Shown here: piece by piece, positions 20,251 to 46,581 of the stretch
Position numbering within the stretch: position 1 is the first letter of the stretch
Layout: every line of letters starts with the position of its first letter
From: Escherichia coli
GTDB lineage: Bacteria > Pseudomonadota > Gammaproteobacteria > Enterobacterales > Enterobacteriaceae
Length of the DNA: 64,000 bases
Direction: 5' to 3' (one strand)
NCBI RefSeq assembly: GCF_024223415.1
Contig: NZ_CP100503.1
The notes under the pieces: model-generated
Told to the model about the DNA's origin: nothing
Databases searched by the model: none
What the model saw: the letters and a program-made list of their open reading frames with translations, nothing else
Program-made: the position numbers and the translations under genes

Positions 20251-21444
20251 GTGACCTGGGACGATCACAAGAAGAATTTTGCTCGCCTGGCGCGAGATGG
20301 TGGTTACACCATCGCACAGTATGCCGCCGAGTTTAATCTTAACCCTAATACTGCACGTCGTTATCTCCGTGCCTTCAAAGAAGACACCAGGACAGCGGAC
20401 AGCCGCAAGCCAAATAAGCCAGTCAGGAAGCCACTAAAAAGCATGATCATTGATCACTCTAATGATCAACATGCAGGTGATCACATTGCGGCTGAAATAG
20501 CGGAAAAACAAAGGGTTAATGCCGTTGTCAGTGCCGCAGTCGAGAACGCGAAGCGCCAGAATAAGCGCATAAATGATCGTTCTGATGATCATGACGTGAT
20601 CACCCGCGCCCACCGGACCTTACGTGATCGCCTGGAACGCGACACCCTGGATGATGATGGTGAACGCTTTGAATTCGAAGCTGGCGATTACCTGATAGAT
20701 AACGTTGAAGCGCGGAAGGCCGCTCGCGCTATGTTGCGTCGGTCCGGGGCTGATGTTCTGGAAACCACTCTTCTGGAAAAGTCTCTCTCTCATCTCCTTA
20801 TGCTGGAGAACGCCAGGGATACGTGTATTCGCCTGGTGCAGGAAATGCGCGATCAGCAAAAAGACGATGATGAAGGGACTCCGCCTGAATATCGTATCGC
20901 GAGCATGCTAAACAGCTGTTCCGCGCAGATAAGCAGCCTGATCAACACCATTTACAGCATCCGGAATAACTATCGAAAAGAAAGCCGGGAGGCGGAAAAG
21001 CACGCTTTATCTATGGGGCAAGCTGGCATTGTTAAGCTGGCATACGAACGAAAGCGTGAAAATAACTGGTCAGTGCTGGAAGCAGCTGAATTCATCGAGG
21101 CGCATGGCGGAAAAGTGCCGCCCCTGATGCTGGAGCAAATCAAAGCCGATCTGCGTGCTCCTAAGACCAATACCGATGATGAGGAAAACCAAACAGCATC
21201 TGGCGCTCCATCACTTGAAGATCTGGATAAAATCGCGCGAGAACGGGCCGCCAGCCGCCGCGCTGATGCCGCATTGTGGATTGAGCATCGTAGAGAAGAA
21301 ATTGCCGATATCGTCGATACAGGTGGTTATGGTGATGTCGATGCGGAAGGCATATCAAACGAAGCATGGCTTGAACAGGATCTGGACGAAGACGAGGAGG
21401 AAGACGAAGAAGTTACCCGCAAACTGTACGGGGATGATGATTAA
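20251..21444 (+). CDS. pacA: Pacase (terminase) small subunit PacA
   Basis: 397 aa; GTG start; contains the pac site within its coding sequence. Confidence 0.8.
20444..20602 (+). other. pac: pac packaging site: 4 + 3 TGATC(A/G) hexamers flanking the cleavage region
   Basis: TGATCA at 20444, 20451, 20463, 20478; TGATCG/TGATCA at 20574, 20586, 20597; each carries a GATC Dam site. Confidence 0.8.
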
Positions 21445-22928
21445 TGGCCAGAAGTTGCGTAACGGACCCACGTTGGCGCGAGCTTGTGGCGCTATATCGT
21501 TATGACTGGATTGCGGCCGCTGATGTGTTGTTTGGGAAGACACCAACCTGGCAGCAGGATGAGATCATTGAGTCCACGCAGCAGGACGGCAGTTGGACAA
21601 GTGTGACCTCCGGCCATGGTACTGGTAAGTCGGATATGACGAGTATCATTGCAATACTCTTCATCATGTTTTTCCCCGGCGCTCGCGTTATTCTGGTCGC
21701 TAACAAAAGACAGCAAGTCCTTGATGGTATTTTCAAATACATAAAGAGCAATTGGGCTACTGCTGTTAGCAGATTCCCGTGGTTGTCGAAGTATTTCATT
21801 CTTACAGAAACGTCTTTTTTTGAGGTGACTGGCAAGGGTGTTTGGACAATATTGATAAAGTCCTGTCGCCCCGGGAATGAGGAGGCGTTGGCTGGTGAAC
21901 ACGCCGATCATCTCTTGTATATCATCGACGAAGCGTCGGGTGTGAGTGATAAAGCATTCAGTGTGATAACAGGTGCGCTGACCGGTAAGGATAACCGTAT
22001 TCTGCTTCTTTCCCAGCCTACGCGACCTTCAGGCTATTTCTACGATTCACACCACAGACTAGCTATTCGCCCGGGAAATCCTGATGGATTGTTTACTGCG
22101 ATAATACTGAATAGTGAAGAATCTCCGCTTGTAGATGCAAAATTTATACGAGCAAAACTTGCGGAGTATGGCGGTCGTGATAACCCCATGTACATGATCA
22201 AAGTACGTGGTGAATTTCCCAAATCTCAAGATGGCTTTCTTCTTGGTCGTGATGAGGTTGAGCGGGCGACGCGGCGAAAGGTCAAGATTGCCAAAGGATG
22301 GGGCTGGGTTGCATGTGTTGACGTTGCTGGTGGCACAGGACGAGATAAGTCCGTTATTAATATCATGATGGTGTCCGGCCAGCGAAATAAACGCCGTGTA
22401 ATCAACTATCGTATGCTGGAATACACAGACGTTACAGAAACGCAGTTAGCCGCCAAGATTTTCGCAGAATGTAACCCAGAACGGTTCCCGAACATAACCA
22501 TAGCTATTGATGGCGATGGCTTGGGGAAATCGACGGCTGATCTAATGTACGAACGCTATGGCATTACCGTCCAGCGTATCCGCTGGGGTAAAAAGATGCA
22601 CAGCCGTGAAGATAAGAGCCTGTACTTTGATAAGCGTGCTTATGCCAACGTTCAAGCCGCAGAGGCCGTAAAATCTGGTCGTATGAGACTGGATAAGGGT
22701 AATGAAACTATTGAGGAAGCGTCGAAAATCCCTGTAGGGATTAACTCCGCAGGTCAATGGAAGGTGATGAGTAAGGAGGATATGAAGAAAAAACTCAACC
22801 TGCACTCACCAGACCATTGGGATACATATTGTTTCGCTATGCTGGCTGATTATGTTCCCCAGGATGAAGTGCTTAGCGTCGAAGACGAAGCGCAGGTTGA
22901 TGAAGCTCTTGCATGGCTTAACGAATAA
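21444..22928 (+). CDS. pacB: Pacase (terminase) large subunit PacB
   Basis: 494 aa; start overlaps pacA stop; ATPase/nuclease-type terminase architecture. Confidence 0.85.
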
Positions 22929-22931
22929 ATA

Positions 22932-22948
22932 TTTGCTCTAATAAATTG
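22932..22948 (+). promoter_or_regulatory. C1 operator of immI-like module A
   Basis: TTTGCTCTAATAAATTG, 4 bp after the pacB stop. Confidence 0.55.
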
Positions 22949-22959
22949 TGTTTTTTGAC

Positions 22960-23100
22960 TGCCGATGTTACATTGAACCTGACCTCTTGCGCCTTGAGGC
23001 TTTTTCGGTTTATGCTTATCAGGCACCTCATTAAAACGGGTGCCGGGATTGGCCTCCCGCTTAAGTCTAAGGCGATACAGACGCCGCTCGCGTCTTTTTT
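22960..23100 (+). ncRNA. c4: Putative c4-like antisense RNA leader of module A
   Basis: Non-coding leader between operator and icd; ends at weak hairpin GACGC-N-GCGTC plus T6 (23080-23100); contains GTCTAAGG element repeated at the icd RBS. Confidence 0.3.
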
Positions 23101-23265
23101 GTATCGGCGTACACGCACACCTCTACAATGGTGGGCTGTATGGGGCTACCTTCGGGTAGGCTGGTTACCTTGGACGCCAGTAAGGCCAACTCCGTACAGT
23201 CCACCGCCAGCAAGATTGGTCTCTTCTGCGGTGGTTACATACCAACGTCTAAGGAGGCTGCCAAT

Positions 23266-23487
23266 ATGGCTACTATCCCTACCCCAACTCATCCTGAATT
23301 TATCTGGCGCTTTTACTCCTGCCAAAAACGTCACTATCACTTCGTTATTGCACCAACAGAAGATGAGGCCCGCTCTCAGCTTCCTGACGCCCCATGTATT
23401 TTCTCTGCCCGTTTTTCCACTGATTCACGCAATTCTCTCAGTTACTGGTGCCTCCCTGTTAACGCTTCTGCTCAGGAGGGACTATGA
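23266..23487 (+). CDS. icd: Icd-like small protein
   Basis: 74 aa from ATG at 23266 with AAGGAGG RBS; shares EFIWRFYSCQKRHYHFVIAPTEDEARSQLPDAPCIFSARF with copies B and C; stop overlaps ant start (ATGA). Confidence 0.6.
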   Translation: MATIPTPTHPEFIWRFYSCQKRHYHFVIAPTEDEARSQLPDAPCIFSARFSTDSRNSLSYWCLPVNASAQEGL

Positions 23488-24599
23488 GAACGTCATTAGT
23501 CACCCGTGAAGAGATGATCGAGGCAATTGAACAGCACACTGCCTGTATCAGTACCAGGGATATACCGGGCGTTATTGCCAACTACTTCATGATCACCAAA
23601 CAACTTTACCGGAGAAAGGACAAGAACGCGGTTCACCGCATTCTGCTAACCGATATCCGCGAATACCTGCTCGAACAGGGTCATCTGAATTACGCAACCG
23701 TCGCAGCCGAAACACGCAAGGAGGCACACAGAATGAAAGCAACTAACGTTAAATCAGAAAAAATTCATGCAACTTCAGTTCAGGAATCAGAGCTGGTGGT
23801 TGTTCAGAATCAGTCTGATGAAATTCCCGTTCTGGAATGGCTGGGAGTGCGTGTAGTGACAACCAAGATCCTTGCTAAGGGGTATGGGACCGATGCGGAT
23901 AACATCAAGAAGAACTTTTCCCGTAATGCTGAACGTTTTTGTGAAGGCAAGCATTTCTATAAAGTTATTGGAGATGATTTGAACAATTTGCGGGTGACTT
24001 TAAGTAACTCACAAAATCCCATCTCTCCTAAAGCCCGTTCACTCATCCTCTGGACAGAACGCGGCGCTGCCCGTCACGCTAAAATGCTCGAAACCGATCA
24101 GGCATGGGCATTCTTTGAAAAACTGGAAGACAGCTACTTCCGGCAAAAAGAACAGCAACCGGTTGCAATCCCCCAAACATTACCAGAAGCCCTACGCCTG
24201 GCTGCCGAACTGGCTGAACAAAAGCAGCTTCTGGAACAGAAAGCCCACCAGCTAAATCAGCAGCTGGTGGCCGCCGCTCCTAAGGTCGATTTTGCCGACC
24301 GGGTATCAGTAGCTAAAGGGATCCTGATTGGGAATTTTGCAAAGGTTGTTGGACTTAAGCAAAACGCGCTGTTTGCCTGGTTACGGGAGAACGGCATCCT
24401 GATAGCGTCCGGTGGACGTAAAAATGTGCCGTTCCAGCAGTACATCAACGCGGGGTATTTCACGGTGAAAGAAGTGGTGCTGGATGATGAAGATGGCTAC
24501 CAGATACGGTTGACGCCTCAATTAACGGGTAAAGGCCAGCAGTGGTTGACGCGTAAACTGCTCGATGCTGGCTTGTTAAAACCGGTGGCGGCTGAATAA
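23484..24599 (+). CDS. ant: Antirepressor Ant paralog A (KilA-C C-terminal domain)
   Basis: 371 aa; translationally coupled to icd; C-terminal domain shared with KilA (43795-44595) and other Ant copies. Confidence 0.7.
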   Translation: MRTSLVTREEMIEAIEQHTACISTRDIPGVIANYFMITKQLYRRKDKNAVHRILLTDIREYLLEQGHLNYATVAAETRKEAHRMKATNVKSEKIHATSVQESELVVVQNQSDEIPVLEWLGVRVVTTKILAKGYGTDADNIKKNFSRNAERFCEGKHFYKVIGDDLNNLRVTLSNSQNPISPKARSLILWTERGAARHAKMLETDQAWAFFEKLEDSYFRQKEQQPVAIPQTLPEALRLAAELAEQKQLLEQKAHQLNQQLVAAAPKVDFADRVSVAKGILIGNFAKVVGLKQNALFAWLRENGILIASGGRKNVPFQQYINAGYFTVKEVVLDDEDGYQIRLTPQLTGKGQQWLTRKLLDAGLLKPVAAE

Positions 24600-24606
24600 T
24601 GGAAGA

Positions 24607-24636
24607 ATGCCCGGTTGATGCCGGGCATAATTTATT
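24607..24636 (+). terminator. Hairpin between convergent ant A and c1
   Basis: ATGCCCGG-TTGATG-CCGGGCAT followed by AATTTATT; same hairpin recurs at 35220. Confidence 0.55.
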
Positions 24637-25483
24637 GCGCGCTTTCGGGGTTGTCGTTTACTGGCTGCCCCTTCTTGGTTTTACGGCTGCGCGTAACTGA
24701 TGCGGCTGACTTAACCTTTTTCTCTTCGCGAGTGATGGCAATTTGTTTTTTTACATTTTCAATATCTGCCAGGCGATATATTTTTGCTTGCGGCCAGCGG
24801 TCGCAGATGATCGGTTCTATGGAGTCATAAAGGCTAAATTTTGCTTTTTCGAATTCACCGTTGATGATAATTCCATCACGGAGAGTTTCATCGCAGATAA
24901 ACACGCCACACAGTGGCACATGGTAACTCACTGATTTACCGTTATTGTAGTTAGGACTACTGGAGATGTAGTGAACGCGCAGCATTGTTTCGCTAAAGCC
25001 GTGTACGCGCATACGGAATTTTTCATCCTCCGGGTACTGCTTCATTAGCTCTTTTGTTGCTTCCAGGTTCTCTATGTATTTCGCACTGTGCTCATTGAAC
25101 CCCGCGCTTTTTTGGATGCGAATGTCCTTATCAATCAGATGAATAATGCGGCCAGCGGTCATGTTGACGCTGTTTACAGCTTCTGTCTGATAGGTCGTAA
25201 CCTTACGCACACCGCGAAGGATGTTAGGCACAGGATATAAAATAGTCTTTGGGATATTGAGGTCTGGGTACTGTTCCAGTTCCCGCGCCATTAAAGTCCA
25301 TTTATCAATTTCAGCCTGAATGCTGTCAGTTTCTTTGAACGGTAGAACGACAACCGGGCGTACAGGACGACCGTCGCTGGCTGTATCAACGTGTTGGGCG
25401 CGTGCAACAGCTTTTTTTAGAAAGAGATCCCTGAAGCTGACGAACTCCTGGTACAGTTGTTCGCCGTAGACATAATTTATCAT
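24632..25483 (-). CDS. c1: C1 primary immunity repressor
   Basis: 283 aa; matches P1 C1 as I recall it; operators cluster upstream. Confidence 0.9.
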   Translation of the reverse strand: MINYVYGEQLYQEFVSFRDLFLKKAVARAQHVDTASDGRPVRPVVVLPFKETDSIQAEIDKWTLMARELEQYPDLNIPKTILYPVPNILRGVRKVTTYQTEAVNSVNMTAGRIIHLIDKDIRIQKSAGFNEHSAKYIENLEATKELMKQYPEDEKFRMRVHGFSETMLRVHYISSSPNYNNGKSVSYHVPLCGVFICDETLRDGIIINGEFEKAKFSLYDSIEPIICDRWPQAKIYRLADIENVKKQIAITREEKKVKSAASVTRSRKTKKGQPVNDNPESAQ

Positions 25484-25577: not shown

Positions 25578-25594
25578 AGATTTATTAGTGCATT
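25578..25594 (+). promoter_or_regulatory. Weak C1 operator-like site between coi and c1
   Basis: AGATTTATTAGTGCATT, degenerate match to the reverse-complement consensus. Confidence 0.35.
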
Positions 25595-25803
25595 TATTGT
25601 GAGTCTAACTGGTTAGTTGCCATGAGATATTCGATTGTGTCAGTGAGGTCATCCAGGTCGTCTTGGGTGATGCGGTACTCCTGATTGGATATCTTTGAGT
25701 AGTGTTCAGCAATGGCGCGGGCAGCGTCGGTTTCGGCAGGGTCTACAGATAAAGCGTTAGAGCAATATCTAACGTCGTCGATGGTTGGTTGAATGAAAGC
25801 CAT
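25594..25803 (-). CDS. coi: C1 inactivator Coi
   Basis: 69 aa ORF immediately upstream of c1 on the same strand. Confidence 0.8.
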   Translation of the reverse strand: MAFIQPTIDDVRYCSNALSVDPAETDAARAIAEHYSKISNQEYRITQDDLDDLTDTIEYLMATNQLDSQ

Positions 25804-26456: not shown

Positions 26457-26759
26457 ATGAAGATTATTTCGGTAAAAACATTGAGGGATTTTTGGTCTGT
26501 GAATCCCGATGCAGAACAACCATTAAAGGCCTGGGTTGACGAAGTCTCCAAGGCCACCTGGAAAAGCCCGGCTGATATCAAAGCGCAGTACCGATCTGCC
26601 AGCATTCTTAAAAACAGGCGGGTTGTCTTCAACATCAAAGGTAATGACTACAGATTAATTGTTGCAATTGCTTATCAGCGAGGATGGATGTTCGTTAAGT
26701 TTATTGGAACACATAAGGAATACGATGCCATCGACGCGGATACAATAGAGCTGGAGTAA
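26457..26759 (+). CDS. higB: HigB-family type II toxin (RelE/ParE superfamily mRNA interferase)
   Basis: 100 aa; C-terminal THKEYD motif and toxin-first gene order. Confidence 0.7.
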   Translation: MKIISVKTLRDFWSVNPDAEQPLKAWVDEVSKATWKSPADIKAQYRSASILKNRRVVFNIKGNDYRLIVAIAYQRGWMFVKFIGTHKEYDAIDADTIELE

Positions 26760-26762
26760 ATC

Positions 26763-27122
26763 ATGAACATTAAACCTATCCGTACAGAACAAGATTATCA
26801 GGCCGCACTACGCGCGGTCGAACCTATGTTCGATAACGAACCGGAAATGAACACCCCGGAAGGTGATTTCTTTGAGATAATGTGCCTGCTTATTGAAGAG
26901 TATGAAAAAAGACATTACCCAATTGAACCGCCTACACCCATTGAAGCGATTAAGTTCCGTATGGAACAGCAAGGGTTGACAGTGAAAGATCTGGAACCGG
27001 CGATTGGTAAGTCGAACCGTGTTTACGAAGTTCTGAATGGAACGCGAAATTTAACGTTACCAATGATTAGGCGTTTGCACGTACAGTTTGGCATTCCTCT
27101 CGAAAGTCTGGTTGGTGTGTGA
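26763..27122 (+). CDS. higA: HigA-family antitoxin (XRE-type HTH)
   Basis: 119 aa; C-terminal HTH (GKSNRVYEVLNGTRNLTLPMIRRL) resembling E. coli HigA. Confidence 0.7.
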   Translation: MNIKPIRTEQDYQAALRAVEPMFDNEPEMNTPEGDFFEIMCLLIEEYEKRHYPIEPPTPIEAIKFRMEQQGLTVKDLEPAIGKSNRVYEVLNGTRNLTLPMIRRLHVQFGIPLESLVGV

Positions 27123-30580: not shown

Positions 30581-31645
30581 TCATTCAGCCGCCACAGGTT
30601 TTAACAAGCCAGCATCGAGCAGTTTACGCGTCAACCACTGCTGGCCTTTCCCCGTTAATTGGGGCGTCAGCCGTATCTGGTAGCCCTCTTCATCATCCAG
30701 CACCACTTCTTTCACTGTGAAATATCCGGCGTTTATGTACTGCTGGAACGGTACATTTTTACGTCCACCGGACGCTATCAGGATGCCGTTCTCCCGTAAC
30801 CAGGCAAACAGCGCGTTTTGCTTAAGTCCAACAACCTTTGCAAAATTCCCAATCAGGATTCCATTAGCCACTGATACCCGGTCGGCAAAATCGACTTTAG
30901 GAGCGGCGGCCACCAGCTGCTGATTTAGCTGGTGGGCTTTCTGTTCCAGAAGTTGCTTTTGTTCAGCCAACTCGGCAGCCAGGCGGAGGGCTTCGGGGAG
31001 TGTCTGGGGGATCGCTGGAGAAGCAGCGCTAACCTGCTGCAACTCCTCCAGCTTGTCGATCAACGAACGGCGGACCGCTTTTGACTCGCGCGCGGCAACT
31101 CGCAGGGCTTGTTTGTAGGTCATGGTTATGACCTCAAAAGAGCGCCCAGCCCTTGTGCCATGGGATTTTACGAAAGTTTCGTAAAATTCCCCATCAAGTT
31201 CATCCTTAATTCTATTGAGAAAATCGTTATTGCGGATCTCATTTTCCCCACATAGCTTGCGCGCCTCATTGACCATCTTTAACAGTGTCTGGCTGTCGAT
31301 TGTGTCGCCCGTACTGGGGATAACATCCATGGCTGGTAGTGGTGTGGATTCTATCAAAGGCTTTGTAACGACAACATCTGGTTTGCTTGCTTTCATTCTG
31401 TGTGCCTCCTTGCGTGCTTCGGCGGTTACGGTTGCATAATCAAGACGACCCTGTTCGAGCAGGTATTCACGGATATCAGTTAGCAGAATGCGGTGAACCG
31501 CGTTCTTGTCCTTTCTCCGGTAAAGTTGTTTGGTGATCATGAAGTAGTTGGCTATAACACCAGGAATGTCCCTGGCGCTGATACAGATTGTGTGCTGTTC
31601 AATAGCCTCGATCATTTCTTCACGGGTAACTAATGACGTTCTCAT
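30581..31645 (-). CDS. ant: Antirepressor Ant paralog B (KilA-C C-terminal domain)
   Basis: 354 aa; N- and C-terminal regions near-identical to Ant A/C, central region resembles Ant D. Confidence 0.7.
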   Translation of the reverse strand: MRTSLVTREEMIEAIEQHTICISARDIPGVIANYFMITKQLYRRKDKNAVHRILLTDIREYLLEQGRLDYATVTAEARKEAHRMKASKPDVVVTKPLIESTPLPAMDVIPSTGDTIDSQTLLKMVNEARKLCGENEIRNNDFLNRIKDELDGEFYETFVKSHGTRAGRSFEVITMTYKQALRVAARESKAVRRSLIDKLEELQQVSAASPAIPQTLPEALRLAAELAEQKQLLEQKAHQLNQQLVAAAPKVDFADRVSVANGILIGNFAKVVGLKQNALFAWLRENGILIASGGRKNVPFQQYINAGYFTVKEVVLDDEEGYQIRLTPQLTGKGQQWLTRKLLDAGLLKPVAAE

Positions 31646-31863
31646 AGCCCCTCCTGAGCAGAAGCGTTAACAGGGAGGCACCAGTAACTGAGAGAGTTGC
31701 GCGAGTCAGTAGAAAAGCGTGCAGAGAAAATGCAGGGAGCGTCAGGAAGCTGAGAACGGGCCTCATCTTCTGTTGGTGCAATGACGAAGTGATAGTGACG
31801 TTTTTGACAAGAATAGAAGCGCCAGATAAATTCCGGGCGTGCGCAAGGATTGGCATTAACCAT
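31642..31863 (-). CDS. icd: Icd-like small protein
   Basis: 73 aa; identical to Icd copy C; overlaps ant B start. Confidence 0.6.
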   Translation of the reverse strand: MVNANPCARPEFIWRFYSCQKRHYHFVIAPTEDEARSQLPDAPCIFSARFSTDSRNSLSYWCLPVNASAQEGL

Positions 31864-32023
31864 AGTTACGGCCTCACAAGTTGAATTAACAACCTGCTAC
31901 CCGCTGTCAAACAGGTGGCAGGACGTGACAGGGTTGACAGACTGGCACTTGTGAAACCAGCAGGCCGAAGCCTCCCCATCACGCCCCACCATAATTCGGG
32001 CGTAACGCGGTTTTACGGACACA

Positions 32024-32170
32024 AAAATACCGCAATAACGGAGTGATGCGGTTGTCCGCACAAGTATTCAGGCTGTCAAACCCGGTCGCAGAATTTGCTA
32101 CGACGCAGGAACTATAAGCCTGAACGACGGGAAGATCAATAGTCTGGCGTCCAATAGTAGTTTATTTGTT
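32024..32170 (-). ncRNA. c4: Putative c4-like antisense RNA of module B
   Basis: Colinear (no indels) with the module C leader; GGTTTGACAGCC element at 32071-32082 (rc). Confidence 0.3.
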
Positions 32171-32181
32171 CCAATAAATCA

Positions 32182-32197
32182 AATTTATTAGAGCAAT
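32182..32197 (-). promoter_or_regulatory. C1 operator of immI-like module B
   Basis: AATTTATTAGAGCAAT on plus strand. Confidence 0.6.
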
Positions 32198-32428
32198 ACA
32201 ATCTGGTTGAATGTTTCCTCTCCGAGGTTGCAATGTGCACACTTATTGTTTTATTTGTATGCACTAATAAATATATTATTTTTAATAATAAATAATTGAC
32301 AACTGACAAGTGACTTCAGTCAGAATCATCACACGCCCGGTACGGATGGATCCCTTTTCAAATATTCCATGGACGGCACAGTCTGAGTACCGGGCGCTAC
32401 CTTCAGTTGTATTGCTAAGCCGCCGCTG

Positions 32429-33097
32429 GTGGCTTTTCTTTTTTGTAGGGGCGCTATGGATAAGAAAATATGCGTTGTTTCAATGTGCGTCGGCAAACCG
32501 GCGTCAATGACTGCTGCATGGATCAACAATGAGCTGATCATGGCTGAGCGGACCAGCTACCCTGAACGCCGCCGCGATATGGAACTCCAGCTGCTGCGCG
32601 AATTGCGAGAAAAAGAGGAAAAGGGTTTTATCGTGCTGGTGGAAGAGGAAAACAGCTTTATTACCGGTCGAGTTGGCCAGCGTGTAAGGTTGCGTGATCC
32701 CTTCATGAACGGCAGACCGGTACTGATTGAAGCAATGCAGATTTACAAGGAATTGGAACGCCAGAAAGCGATCAAGTTACCGCGCAAGGAATCCGGCAAA
32801 TACATCCTTCACCAAAGCATCTTCGATTCCGAACACGATAAAAAAGGCGATGAATTTTTCAACATCAACTGGAGCGAAATAACGACAGAGCACGTTCTGA
32901 CGTTGTTATGCTGCTTCGCAACGGAATATAACAACGTTGCAAGCGCCGACTACATCAGGGCAATGGCTGGAGAAGTTGAGGCACGCCAGGAACCATCGTT
33001 ACTAAGCCCTCTGATTAACATAATTCGCGGCACACAGAGACTTGCGGAAAAAAGCGTTCCACACGGAATCTTAACTGGGAAGGGAAACTATTTTTAA
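32429..33097 (+). CDS. Hypothetical protein
   Basis: 222 aa from GTG; ATG at 32456 (MDKKIC) may be the true start. Confidence 0.4.
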   Translation: MAFLFCRGAMDKKICVVSMCVGKPASMTAAWINNELIMAERTSYPERRRDMELQLLRELREKEEKGFIVLVEEENSFITGRVGQRVRLRDPFMNGRPVLIEAMQIYKELERQKAIKLPRKESGKYILHQSIFDSEHDKKGDEFFNINWSEITTEHVLTLLCCFATEYNNVASADYIRAMAGEVEARQEPSLLSPLINIIRGTQRLAEKSVPHGILTGKGNYF

Positions 33098-33130
33098 CAT
33101 CCCCAAATCCTTTTGGGGAACAACTCATTC

Positions 33131-33448
33131 TTACAATAGCTGCCCCATACATTGTCTCCAGGCACTCCCCTCATTACCGTTATCAAGAAACGTAGAGGTT
33201 GCATAAGGAATGCCTCTGATTTGTGTTGATGTGAATGGACCATCAGACGTCGAAGTTGTGCGCAGTTTTGATGTAAACTCGTAATTTCCACTGATGCCTT
33301 TCTCTGCCAGAGCTTTTGATTTTGTGATAACTAAATCTGCACATTTCTCTGCGGCTACATATTGCGGGTCTTTTTCAGCTTTTCCGGCACATGCAGTTAT
33401 CGTTAAAACGATAGCTGCGGCTAACAAATTACCTAGTTTCATCTGCAT
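33131..33448 (-). CDS. Putative lipoprotein
   Basis: Signal peptide with lipobox LTITAC; likely start MKLGNLL at 33442. Confidence 0.5.
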   Translation of the reverse strand: MQMKLGNLLAAAIVLTITACAGKAEKDPQYVAAEKCADLVITKSKALAEKGISGNYEFTSKLRTTSTSDGPFTSTQIRGIPYATSTFLDNGNEGSAWRQCMGQLL

Positions 33449-33547
33449 ACCTTATTAAGTGCATTAAAAACAGTAGGTTGCCAAGGTTTTAAACAAATTT
33501 CAATCCTCCATGACGCTCAATATGAGCAAAAATAACACACAAACATC

Positions 33548-33564
33548 ATTGCTCTAATAAATTT
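33548..33564 (+). promoter_or_regulatory. C1 operator of immI-like module C
   Basis: ATTGCTCTAATAAATTT, perfect consensus. Confidence 0.65.
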
Positions 33565-33574
33565 GATTTTTTAG

Positions 33575-33721
33575 GGCAAATAAACTACCATTGCGCACTG
33601 CCCTATTGATCTCCTTACCGTTCAGGCTTATATTCATGCCGTCGTAGCAAATTCTGCGACCGGGTTTAGCAGCCTGAATACTTACGCGGACAACCGCAGA
33701 TATCCGATATTGCGGTATTTT
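33575..33721 (+). ncRNA. c4: Putative c4-like antisense RNA of module C
   Basis: Leader with GGTTTAGCAGCC (33663-33674) and hairpin ACCGCAGA-N-TGCGGT plus ATTTTC (33693-33721); complementary element CTGCTAACC at 33805-33813. Confidence 0.3.
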
Positions 33722-33881
33722 CATGTCCGTATAACCGCGTTACGCCCGAATTATGGTGGGGCGTGATGGGGAGGCTTCGGCCTGCTGGTTTCGTAAGTGC
33801 CAGTCTGCTAACCCCGTCACGTCCTGCCACCTGTTTAGCAGCGGGTCGCAGGTTGTTTTATCAACTTACGAGGCCGTAACT

Positions 33882-34103
33882 ATGGTTAATGCCAATCCTT
33901 GCGCACGCCCTGAATTTATCTGGCGCTTTTACTCCTGCCAAAAACGTCACTATCACTTCGTTATTGCACCAACAGAAGATGAGGCCCGCTCTCAGCTTCC
34001 TGACGCCCCATGTATTTTCTCTGCCCGCTTTTCCACTGATTCGCGCAACTCTCTCAGTTACTGGTGCCTCCCTGTTAACGCTTCTGCTCAGGAGGGACTA
34101 TGA
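33882..34103 (+). CDS. icd: Icd-like small protein
   Basis: 73 aa from ATG at 33882; stop overlaps ant C start. Confidence 0.6.
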   Translation: MVNANPCARPEFIWRFYSCQKRHYHFVIAPTEDEARSQLPDAPCIFSARFSTDSRNSLSYWCLPVNASAQEGL

Positions 34104-35212
34104 GAACATCGTTAGTTACCCGTGAAGAGATGATCGAGGCAATTGAACAGCACACTGCCTGTATCAGTACCAGGGATATACCGGGCGTTATTGCCAACTA
34201 CTTCATGATCACCAAACAACTTTACCGGAGAAAGGACAAAAACGCGGTTCACCGCATTCTGCTAACCGATATCCGTGAATACCTGCTCGAACAGGGTCAT
34301 CTGAATTACGCAACCGTCGCAGCCGAAGCACGCAAGGAGGCACACAGAATGAAAGCAACTAACGTTAAATCAGAAAAAATTTATGCACCTTCAGTTCAGG
34401 AATCGGAACTGGTGGTTGTTCAGAATCAGCCGGATGAAATTCCCGTTCTGGAATGGCAGGGAGTACGTGTCGTGACAACCGAAACTCTTGCTAGAGGGTA
34501 TGGGACCGAAACTAATAACATCAAAGTTAACTATACGCGTAATGCTGATCGCTTTGAGGAAGGTAAACATTACTTTCTACTAACTGGTTCAAAATTAAAA
34601 GAATTGAAGGACAAGGTTACTCAAAGTAACTTAGTCGCACCGCGAGCAAAGCACCTCACTCTCTGGACGGAACGCGGCGCAGCCCGCCACGCTAAAATGC
34701 TCGAAACCGATCAGGCATGGGCATTCTTTGAAAAACTGGAAGACAGCTACTTCCGACAAAAAGAACAGCAACCGATCGCAATCCCCCAGACGCTTCCTGA
34801 AGCTCTGCGCCTGGCTGCCGAACTGGCTGAACAAAAGCAACTTCTGGAACAGAAAGCCCACCAGCTAAATCAGCAGCTGGTGGCCGCAGCCCCTAAAGTC
34901 GAGTTTGCCGACCGGGTATCAGTGGCCAAGGGGATCCTGATTGGGAATTTTGCAAAGGTTGTTGGACTTAAGCAAAACGCGCTGTTTGCCTGGTTACGGG
35001 AGAACGGCATCCTGATAGCGTCCGGTGGACGTAAAAATGTGCCGTTCCAGCAATACATCAACGCCGGGTATTTCACGGTGAAAGAAGTGGTGCTGGATGA
35101 TGAAGATGGCTACCAGATACGGTTGACGCCCCAGCTAACTGGGAAAGGCCAGCAGTGGTTGACGCGTAAACTGCTCGATGCTGGCTTGTTAAAACCGGTG
35201 GCGGCTGAATAA
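34100..35212 (+). CDS. ant: Antirepressor Ant paralog C (KilA-C C-terminal domain)
   Basis: 370 aa; closest to Ant A throughout. Confidence 0.7.
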   Translation: MRTSLVTREEMIEAIEQHTACISTRDIPGVIANYFMITKQLYRRKDKNAVHRILLTDIREYLLEQGHLNYATVAAEARKEAHRMKATNVKSEKIYAPSVQESELVVVQNQPDEIPVLEWQGVRVVTTETLARGYGTETNNIKVNYTRNADRFEEGKHYFLLTGSKLKELKDKVTQSNLVAPRAKHLTLWTERGAARHAKMLETDQAWAFFEKLEDSYFRQKEQQPIAIPQTLPEALRLAAELAEQKQLLEQKAHQLNQQLVAAAPKVEFADRVSVAKGILIGNFAKVVGLKQNALFAWLRENGILIASGGRKNVPFQQYINAGYFTVKEVVLDDEDGYQIRLTPQLTGKGQQWLTRKLLDAGLLKPVAAE

Positions 35213-45766: not shown

Positions 45767-45948
45767 TACAATCGTTACGGGTGCTTGAGGCTATCTGCTT
45801 CAGGCATTACCCGAAAAGCAGATAGAAGAAAGCCCCAGATAACATTACGCGTCCTGCAAGACGCTTAACATTAATCTGAGGCCATCTCTATGCTTAGCAT
45901 ACGTAGATTAACCCTCTCCCCTTTTAAGGAGCAAGGAATTTTTTACTG

Positions 45949-46581
45949 CTATGCCGCATTTCCAATTATGGATTCAGCGACCAGAACAACCCCATGCTTA
46001 CTTCGATCTGGGTGTTCACTCCATATCTCGGATTCAGGAATACTTACCCCGTCATAGCAAACACGTTCGCCGTCAAACGGGTAATACTGAGCGGCATCGG
46101 TGTCAAGGATAAACACTTTTAGCTCGGAAGAGCGACGGGCGATGTGTTGCCAAAGAGCTTTTCCACCTTCGTATTGCTCATTATCACTGAGCAAAACAAC
46201 ACCAGCTTTTGAGGCTACGGTTTCGTAAACAAAAGTAGCTAAACCGACATCCCGGACGGTTCCATCAACCACGATACCTTCAATCTGGGCAACATCGCTA
46301 TCCTCCCAGAACTTCCTTACCAGTACGCCTTCAAGCTGCGGGCGACGTTGAAGTTCAAGAGTAGCGACAACCTTATGGCGCATATCACCATCGATAATAG
46401 AAGGCGCAGCCTCTATTACAGCTGCAAATGGGGTTTTGGAATCCCATATAACCTGGTAAAGCACACCCTGGATGGTAACTCCGTCCAGGATCGAAAATCG
46501 ACGAGCGACAGTACCCGGGGAGTACGACATTGGAATCACAGCCATTTTAGAGTCCCCCTTTAACAGTACAGGCACAAACAT
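45949..46581 (-). CDS. Hypothetical protein
   Basis: 210 aa ORF. Confidence 0.4.
   Translation of the reverse strand: MFVPVLLKGDSKMAVIPMSYSPGTVARRFSILDGVTIQGVLYQVIWDSKTPFAAVIEAAPSIIDGDMRHKVVATLELQRRPQLEGVLVRKFWEDSDVAQIEGIVVDGTVRDVGLATFVYETVASKAGVVLLSDNEQYEGGKALWQHIARRSSELKVFILDTDAAQYYPFDGERVCYDGVSIPESEIWSEHPDRSKHGVVLVAESIIGNAA

Follow-up and report, generated by a model that had tools for sequence, protein, structure and literature searches.

What fills the interval between pacB and c1 in a P1-like phage-plasmid of Escherichia coli, and does it confer an immunity specificity of its own? The question arises from a stretch of 64,000 nucleotides of contig NZ_CP100503.1 (hereafter the window, whose positions are used throughout), which represents such a phage-plasmid. 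In P1 (AF234172) the stop codons of pacB and of the convergent c1 lie 24 bp apart, as an earlier reading of this DNA made from the letters alone (the sequence-only reading) had correctly stated, whereas in the window the corresponding interval measures 1703 bp and contains, in order, a 17-mer resembling an operator of the C1 repressor, a leader without a convincing open reading frame (ORF), icd, ant and a G+C-rich hairpin. The operator-like site, leader, icd and ant that this reading had placed between the pacB stop at 22928 and c1 are all present, and the comparison supports its view that P1 has no immI-type operator-leader-icd-ant module at this junction; its term ‘inserted’ claims more, as the comparisons fit a deletion in P1 as well as an insertion here. 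From sequence and comparison, we consider it very probable that this locus, here called module A, represents an intact immI-type immunity module, in which an icd-ant antirepressor operon is controlled by an antisense RNA with a C4 specificity of its own.

The 330-bp leader carries two sets of matching recognition sequences, a and b:

23023-23100, plus strand: isrK-type upstream element (RF01394, 60.8 bits against a gathering threshold of 50; model positions 1-77, the full length)
23049-23055, plus strand: a1, TTGGCCT, in the loop of isrK hairpin 2
23065-23072, plus strand: b1, GTCTAAGG, in the linker of the isrK-type element
23124-23211, plus strand: C4 antisense RNA (RF01695, 75.9 bits against a gathering threshold of 45; the window’s other two C4 matches score lower)
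23168-23175, plus strand: b', CCTTGGAC, in the loop of C4 hairpin 2, the b' position of P1 c4
23183-23189, plus strand: a', AGGCCAA, in the single-stranded C4 linker
23216-23222, plus strand: a2, TTGGTCT, forming seven pairs with a', one of them G-U
23247-23257, plus strand: b2, GTCTAAGG, a site overlapping the icd Shine-Dalgarno AAGGAGG (23251-23257)

The isrK-type element consists of hairpin 1, hairpin 2 with a1 in its loop, a linker with b1, and an intrinsic terminator (23079-23095) followed by a T run. It folds as three hairpins in the minimum free energy (MFE) structure, and a terminator scan also detects the terminator hairpin. For the C4 stretch, RNAfold alone returns the canonical fold (-41.6 kcal/mol), with a long closing stem, two internal hairpins and a single-stranded linker; the mature RNA is predicted to span approximately 23130-23208, its ends being placed from the annotated P1 c4. 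The folds, like the three-way complementarity that ends with b2 over the Shine-Dalgarno, are features of the sequence itself and of its comparison with relatives. The sequence-only reading had located GTCTAAGG (23065-23072 and 23247-23254) and CCTTGGAC (23168-23175) to the exact base, and had missed the second triplet, TTGGCCT / AGGCCAA / TTGGTCT (a1/a'/a2). With both strands counted, GTCTAAGG occurs twice in the window, each time in the module A leader. When the two flanks were dinucleotide-shuffled 3000 times, one shuffle had both b sites at the observed quality, four had both a sites and none had all four.

To this we added a comparison across loci. A scan of IMG/VR with Icd A gave 79 loci, which were combined with plasmid and phage loci; the C4 anchor used was looser than the motif ATGGTGG, which misses RCS47-type leaders. 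This yielded 69 leaders, 58 of which have a pacB stop at most 400 nt upstream, and 68 isrK-type leaders, mostly from IMG/VR contigs, were analysed. Pairs were counted in an alignment of 30 distinct leaders, including that of prophage Gifsy-1. Here the helices of C4 show 99-100% pairing, and at 11 of their 27 pairs both sides have changed. The upstream pairings, a1-a' and b1-b', are 100% paired, with changes on both sides at 4/7 and 6/8 pairs (10/15 together), against 32-45% pairing in the slid controls of this run, which covered the upstream pairs and the whole structure. Towards icd, a'-a2 is 100% paired, with both sides changed at four of seven pairs, and b'-b2 is 98.3% paired, also with compensatory changes; taken together these two helices are 99.1% paired and compensatory at 8 of 15 pairs, the slid controls giving 24-54%. 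The alleles fall into the following types:

29 loci, the window’s type: a1/a2 TTGGCCT/TTGGTCT, a' AGGCCAA, b1/b2 GTCTAAGG, b' CCTTGGAC
14 loci: a1/a2 TTGAGAC, a' GTCTCAA, b1/b2 GCAAAAGG, b' CCTTTTGC
8 loci: a1/a2 TTGAGAC, a' GTCTCAA, b1/b2 GTCAAAGG, b' CCTTTGAC
11 loci: a1/a2 TTGGAAC, a' GTTCCAA, b1/b2 GCAAAAGG, b' CCTTTTGC
6 loci: a1/a2 TTGGAAC, a' GTTCCAA, b1/b2 GTCAAAGG, b' CCTTTGAC

Among the leaders of the window’s type, 27 share one downstream sequence and two carry a one-base variant just before the start codon. The a alleles (GGCCT, GAGAC, GGAAC) and the b alleles (GTCTAAGG, GTCAAAGG, GCAAAAGG) assort freely, and all three copies always agree; P1-type leaders in the same data have six b alleles, again with matched targets. 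Judged from these sequences, it is difficult to account for this 2 x 2 assortment of the a and b sets unless pairing is under selection. This bears directly on the proposal that module A is an inert duplicate, a remnant of recombination that is neither expressed nor selected. Several icd-ant copies do occur within the same plasmid, and a deletion variant is found at locus L054. In module A, however, all ORFs are intact, its a and b sites recur in 29 of the 68 leaders, its leader type is matched at 95% identity or more by 102 PLSDB records and 158 RefSeq E. coli records, and the matched three-way allele changes imply selection on pairing; we give this proposal hardly any credence, and rate it the least probable of the explanations considered. 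The L054 variant itself (approximately 2600-3003; IMG/VR 2609459791_000005) has an internal pacB-like coding sequence fused directly to the b2/Shine-Dalgarno of icd, the deletion removing the operator, the isrK element and C4.

Could the conservation over C4 be due instead to a small protein, the ‘ash family protein’ or orf45, which here would form an N-terminal extension of Icd starting at the ATG at 23128? RefSeq annotates ‘ash family protein’ coding sequences over the C4 stretch, a tagged orf45 product was detected in Gifsy-1 (PMC4825925), and nothing interrupts the ORF 23128-23487, which continues in frame into icd. The pattern of change points the other way, in that C4 stem positions vary by compensatory substitutions that keep the pairing, and the frame is not conserved: it meets a stop after 14 codons in P1, forms a separate 39-residue coding sequence in RCS47-type leaders and is fused to icd in the window. 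Furthermore, the ATG at 23128 has no Shine-Dalgarno and lies inside a 16-bp stem, a search of NCBIfam found no family for the 46-residue peptide encoded over C4, and the Gifsy-1 authors noted that the nucleotide sequence is conserved while the amino-acid sequence is not (PMC4825925). A protein-based explanation is thus very unlikely. The annotated coding sequences lie exactly over the C4 of isrK-type leaders (window 23128-23265; L007 2022-2141; L008 2012-2131) and correspond to the same ORF as Gifsy-1 orf45; in the window this ORF begins at a conserved AUG in the C4 stem. They probably represent an RNA gene annotated as a protein.

The heteroimmunity of P1 and P7 is the textbook case of immunity specificity set by antisense RNA. 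Set beside these two phages and beside modules B and C, two further icd-ant modules of the window, module A has the following target sequences:

Module A: a target TTGGCCT, b target GTCTAAGG
Module B: a target TTAGCAG, b target ACTTACG
Module C: a target TTGACAG, b target ACTTGTG
P1: a target TTGACAG, b target GTTAGTG
P7: a target TTAGCAG, b target GATTGTG

Duplexes between b' loops and their cognate downstream targets range from -10.0 to -11.3 kcal/mol, the latter value being that of module A b'-b2, and non-cognate duplexes from -1.6 to -8.0 kcal/mol; on the module A target, the b' loops of B, C, P1 and Gifsy-1 reach -3.2 to -4.2 kcal/mol. The energies of the a' linker fail to discriminate between the modules, as a' matches ‘GAGGCC’ in the B, C and P1 leaders and GGCC is self-complementary, and the specificity argument therefore rests on b and on the covariation. 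The sequence-only reading had spoken of a ‘third antisense specificity’. What holds of this is the distinctness, since module A recognises other sequences than B, C, P1 and P7 do, which implies that its C4 should silence only cognate ant operons. The count is not supported, as the closest complete plasmid has four modules. A separate, orthogonal C4 specificity for module A is well supported by these sequences, and this C4 would provide an independent immunity specificity, with a previously undescribed recognition allele.

In the mechanism that we propose, transcription would start from a C1-operated promoter, and probably also from a weak second promoter that is constitutive. The transcript would first cross the isrK-type element, with its decoy sites a1 and b1, and then meet the intrinsic terminator; read-through would produce the C4 RNA, which RNase P presumably excises, as it does in P1. 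Within C4, the loop b' (CCUUGGAC) would pair with b2 over the icd ribosome-binding site, and the linker a' (AGGCCAA) with a2. Pairing would block the translation of icd and also the synthesis of ant, because ant is translationally coupled to icd and, in P1, transcription is Rho-polar. A short terminated isrK-like RNA, or a1/b1 acting in cis, would titrate C4 and release expression, as IsrK does in Gifsy-1. Several of these steps are carried over from P1, where, in the work of Citron and Schuster (1990) and of later authors, C4 is said to be processed by RNase P and to repress icd in trans, with Rho polarity acting on ant and Ant opposing C1.

A number of points weigh against this account. The covariation comes from closely related sequences with few independent allele changes, the pairing tested was derived from the window sequence itself, and the b pairing includes a G-U wobble, as does that of a2. 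A consensus promoter scan of the leader called no forward promoter, both proposed promoters being weak matches. The position of the terminator upstream of C4 makes C4 output depend on read-through, and in the MFE structure of the unprocessed leader (z = -3.25) a1:a' and b1:b' are paired in cis and the icd ribosome-binding site is free. The default state of module A could, on this model, be ON rather than OFF; given the cis pairing, the resting state is not predictable from sequence. The cis-paired structure also fits an older proposal in which a1/b1 compete with a2/b2.

The same fold is among the grounds for a rival account, namely positive control of the IsrK type, in which the long transcript would be inactive or self-sequestered, the short isrK-like RNA, induced once C1 leaves the operator, would be the decisive activator, and C4 would serve only as a structural partner. 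Together with the cis pairing of a1/b1 with a'/b' across the full leader, the isrK match and terminator in module A would suit such an arrangement, and in Gifsy-1 IsrK supplied in trans raises anrP translation more than 100-fold (PMC4825925). On the other hand, b2 overlaps the icd Shine-Dalgarno exactly as in P1, whose C4 is a proven trans repressor, and b'-b2 and a'-a2 covary as strongly as the upstream pairs, something that a pure activator model does not need. Activation in this pure form is a possibility to be taken seriously, if one that we hold to be clearly short of even. Repression by C4 and activation of the IsrK type are compatible, and probably belong to one circuit.

The repressor account places module A within a known family of systems. 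Like immI of P1 and P7, it begins with an operator (here an operator-like site) and two promoters (here putative), followed by a1/b1, C4, a2/b2 across the ribosome-binding site of icd, icd-ATGA-ant and nested Ant1/Ant2, and it shares with them the RNA family RF01695 and the KilAC C-terminal domain. It differs in its site (between pacB and c1, where P1 immI lies between sim and kilA), in the central domain of Ant (an ORF6N domain in place of that found in P1) and in its leader, which is approximately 50% identical to that of P1 and has an upstream part of isrK type with a strong intrinsic terminator. The sequence-only reading had called the leader unrelated in sequence to those of modules B and C. 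This was mistaken: because the leader aligns collinearly with those of P1, B and C at approximately 50% identity, it is, by sequence, diverged and not unrelated. The shared layout that the same reading described is real, all of these leaders having the order operator or operator-like site, P51a-like and P51b-like promoters (putative in module A), two hairpins, b1, terminator-like hairpin, C4, a2, b2 and ATG. Under the c4-a1b1 model (RF03163), which modules B and C pass, as does Gifsy-1 (48.1 bits), module A scores 20.5 bits at 23010-23063, below the gathering threshold of 46.7. Membership of its upstream element in RF03163 was rejected on this score, though the first two hairpins are common to both; the element resembles c4-a1b1 in layout but has diverged.

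The isrK-orf45(STnc1160)-anrP locus of Gifsy-1 is a second point of comparison. As in module A, isrK and a terminator are followed by a C4-family RNA and then by a2/b2 at the antirepressor ribosome-binding site, and the ORF6N part of Ant A has a homologue in AnrP, with 53% identity over 105 aa. Unlike module A, this locus belongs to a lambdoid prophage, has no icd, its C4 targeting the anrP ribosome-binding site directly, has no C1 operator, and carries other a/b sequences. Hershko-Shalev et al. (2016, PMC4825925) found that IsrK supplied in trans activates anrP translation in Gifsy-1, and tested the pairs G28/C162 and G31/C159 with compensatory mutants; accumulation of the short IsrK RNA, Hfq binding and trans activation are known only for Gifsy-1 (PMC4825925). 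With +1 set at L005 2031 (the Gifsy-1 locus, L005 2031-2273), these two pairs land precisely on a1 (UUGGCG) and a' (CGCCAA), the bases at C18/G173 agree as well, and the processed RNA STnc1160 of approximately 80 nt coincides with the C4 match. This mapping identifies helix b-I of the IsrK paper with the a1-a' pairing known from c4. By the same sequence evidence isrK is an a1/b1 element plus terminator, because the Gifsy-1 locus shows the same anatomy and passes the c4-a1b1 model. In the literature searched, we found no link drawn between IsrK and c4-a1b1, and a 2025 review still gives IsrK and c4 as separate, unrelated entries. The b-type site of Gifsy-1, ATCACCGG, overlaps the anrP Shine-Dalgarno.

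Closer relatives of the leader come from two further groups. The RCS47-type module (RCS47, NC_042128; pTZ20_1P, MN510447) has the same pacB-c1 site and gene content and is 93% identical over the whole module, also with an isrK + C4 leader. This leader is approximately 75% identical to that of module A; its C4 body is another one, its a and b sites are of other alleles, and its terminator and C4 are separated by a 21-column block absent from module A. Outside P1-like plasmids, the closest leader relatives (83-88% identity) are in P4-like chromosomal elements of E. coli, which encode primase-family proteins (L091 1990-2300; L092 and L093 1975-2260, on E. coli chromosomes). They share the C4 body and the a allele TTGGCCT/AGGCCAA with module A and carry other b alleles (CAATCAAGG, GTTAGAGG); downstream of them lies a primase-encoding satellite without ant, whereas module A continues into icd and ant. 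The P4 CI RNA (seqA-seqC system) is an RNA that causes transcription termination. Module A falls outside that system, the genes after its leader being icd and ant with no primase operon. These shared parts suggest cassette exchange between P4-like satellites and P1-like plasmids, and perhaps partial cross-talk between them. In L092 and L093, b2 (GTCAGAGG) has a mismatch to b' (CCTCTAAC).

The protein-coding part of the module comprises two overlapping genes:

23266-23487, plus strand: icd, 73 aa (NCBIfam phage_ICD_like, E = 2.6e-13)
23484-24599, plus strand: ant, Ant1-like, 371 aa (Pfam ORF6N at residues 117-201 and ANT/KilAC at 259-360; ANT E = 8.6e-31)

The stop of icd and the start of ant overlap in ATGA (4 nt, 23484-23487) as in P1, a coupling signal that is plain both in the sequence and from the comparison, and an in-frame Ant2-like start lies inside ant at 23733, with AAGGAGG upstream. 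Icd A equals Icd B and Icd C apart from its first nine residues. Ant A shares 89% identity with Ant B, 65% with Ant C and 55% with P1 Ant1, the N- and C-terminal parts being conserved in the last case; it is this 55% identity that suggests that Ant A may act as a C1 antagonist. NCBIfam returned no family for Ant A. Sliding identity to module B stays at 42-58% up to approximately 23290 and rises to 90-100% beyond it, except for 23759-24057, which is 53-90% identical, lowest at 23939-24057. Because of the jump at approximately 23290, module A is, by sequence, a mosaic: a leader cassette unlike that of B, and nearest to those of P4-like chromosomal elements, meets inside icd codon 9-10 an icd-ant body that is nearly the same as in module B.

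Upstream of the leader RNA elements lie the signals that would control the operon:

22932-22948, plus strand: C1 operator-like site TTTGCTCTAATAAATTG, at the position of P1 Op51/Oc4
22946-22974, plus strand: putative C1-controlled promoter resembling P1 P2c4/P51a (-35 TTGTGT, 17-bp spacer, -10 TACATT)
22987-23016, plus strand: putative constitutive promoter resembling P1 P1c4/P51b and Gifsy-1 PisrK (-35 TTGCGC, 18-bp spacer, -10 TATGCT; predicted start approximately 23023)

The site TTTGCTCTAATAAATTG departs from the P1 C1-operator consensus at its two end positions only, and aligns with the annotated P1 operators and with the operators of modules B and C. Operator-like 17-mers with at most three mismatches occur 15 times in the window against 0.32 expected, and, as predicted from these matches, outline the C1 regulon of the element; sites of this kind include 11303, 26043, 32181, 33548, 43709 and 59159. 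The P51a-like promoter was placed by alignment with the annotated P1 promoter only, and the P51b-like promoter by alignment with P1 and Gifsy-1. At the latter, the hexamers of module A are weak beside their equivalents in P1 (TTGACC/TATAGT) and Gifsy-1 (TTGACA/TATATT). The genes around the module, and the hairpin that separates ant from c1, are:

20251-21444, plus strand: pacA
21444-22928, plus strand: pacB, with its stop at 22928
24607-24628, no strand assigned: G+C-rich hairpin between ant and c1, a probable bidirectional terminator from a terminator scan (9-bp stem, six G-C pairs), its function being predicted
24632-25483, minus strand: c1, convergent with ant
25594-25803, minus strand: coi

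How common is such a module? The sequence-only reading implied that it is rare. Comparison of P1-like genomes at the pacB-c1 junction, which that reading had itself named as the test, shows the module to be widespread and largely refutes this view. Parts of the P1 pacB/c1 junction are matched by 702 PLSDB records, 314 of which have an uninterrupted P1-type junction. At least 80% of module A is covered by 280 PLSDB records, an upper bound for this site since a few lie at other positions (L008, for example, is a canonical immI beside kilA, and L009 lies after ref); for the leader, searched at ‘distant’ sensitivity, the same coverage is reached by 313 records. Up to about 40% of P1-like plasmids have such a module at pacB-c1. 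Phages RCS47, JL22 and vB_EcoM-673R5 carry it, and it is absent from P1, P7, SJ46 and D6. Venturini et al. (2019, PMC6906374) mention ant, with two short hypothetical orfs, as an insertion at the pacB-c1 junction and compare it with RCS47; in the literature searched we found no paper analysing the RNA elements or the specificity of the pacB-c1 module.

The closest complete plasmid (NZ_CP128972/AP026456) is 99.9% identical over module A and has four icd-ant modules: module A, the divergent B and C flanking mat, and a canonical immI with the P1 b' allele beside kilA/repL. This fourth module lies in a part of the record without a match to the window and would fall outside the window, though the window’s own replicon may carry it. 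Identity of the window with NZ_CP128972 was considered and rejected, as the two are 99.5-99.9% identical in the module regions but not collinear throughout.

Module A is an intact and widespread module of immI type, whose RNA and protein parts come from known families and whose known mechanism is unchanged. Natural P1-like plasmids hold many more specificities than P1 and P7, built from two independently assorting recognition elements, and three or four orthogonal modules can occur together in a single plasmid. Knowing this helps to predict which phage-plasmids, many of which carry resistance genes, coexist, exclude or induce one another, and the locus ties the Salmonella small RNA IsrK to the a1/b1 decoy of the c4 system. 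We tentatively suggest, at somewhat less than an even chance, that the pacB-c1 slot serves as a locus for swappable specificity cassettes. Here, a x b leaders would pass between P1-like plasmids, the other immI sites of these plasmids and P4-like satellites, up to four orthogonal C4/Ant modules would be stacked as in an arms race, the terminated isrK-like RNA would act as a natural C4 decoy, and the shared a allele would permit partial cross-talk with satellites. If so, each extra ant would break the immunity of residents without the cognate C4, each extra C4 would shield its resident from more invaders, and the decoy role of the isrK-like RNA would unify the IsrK and c4 literatures.

Other features of the window were noted in passing. 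Modules C (minus strand, 32197 down to 30581) and B (plus strand, 33548-35212) face away from each other around a mat-like gene, within 30581-35212. In both, the C1 operator is perfect and the c4-a1b1 and C4 models find a match, and their b alleles (ACTTGTG in C, ACTTACG in B) are neither that of P1 nor that of P7; in PLSDB the divergent pair occurs in one plasmid only, under two accessions. A match to the sok antitoxin RNA (RF01794, 91.4 bits; 45779-45953, plus strand) implies a hok/sok-type locus for post-segregational killing. Finally, a pair consisting of a HigB-like toxin and a helix-turn-helix antitoxin lies at 26457-27122 (plus strand), between coi and an integrase-like gene, and is annotated as such in NZ_CP128972.

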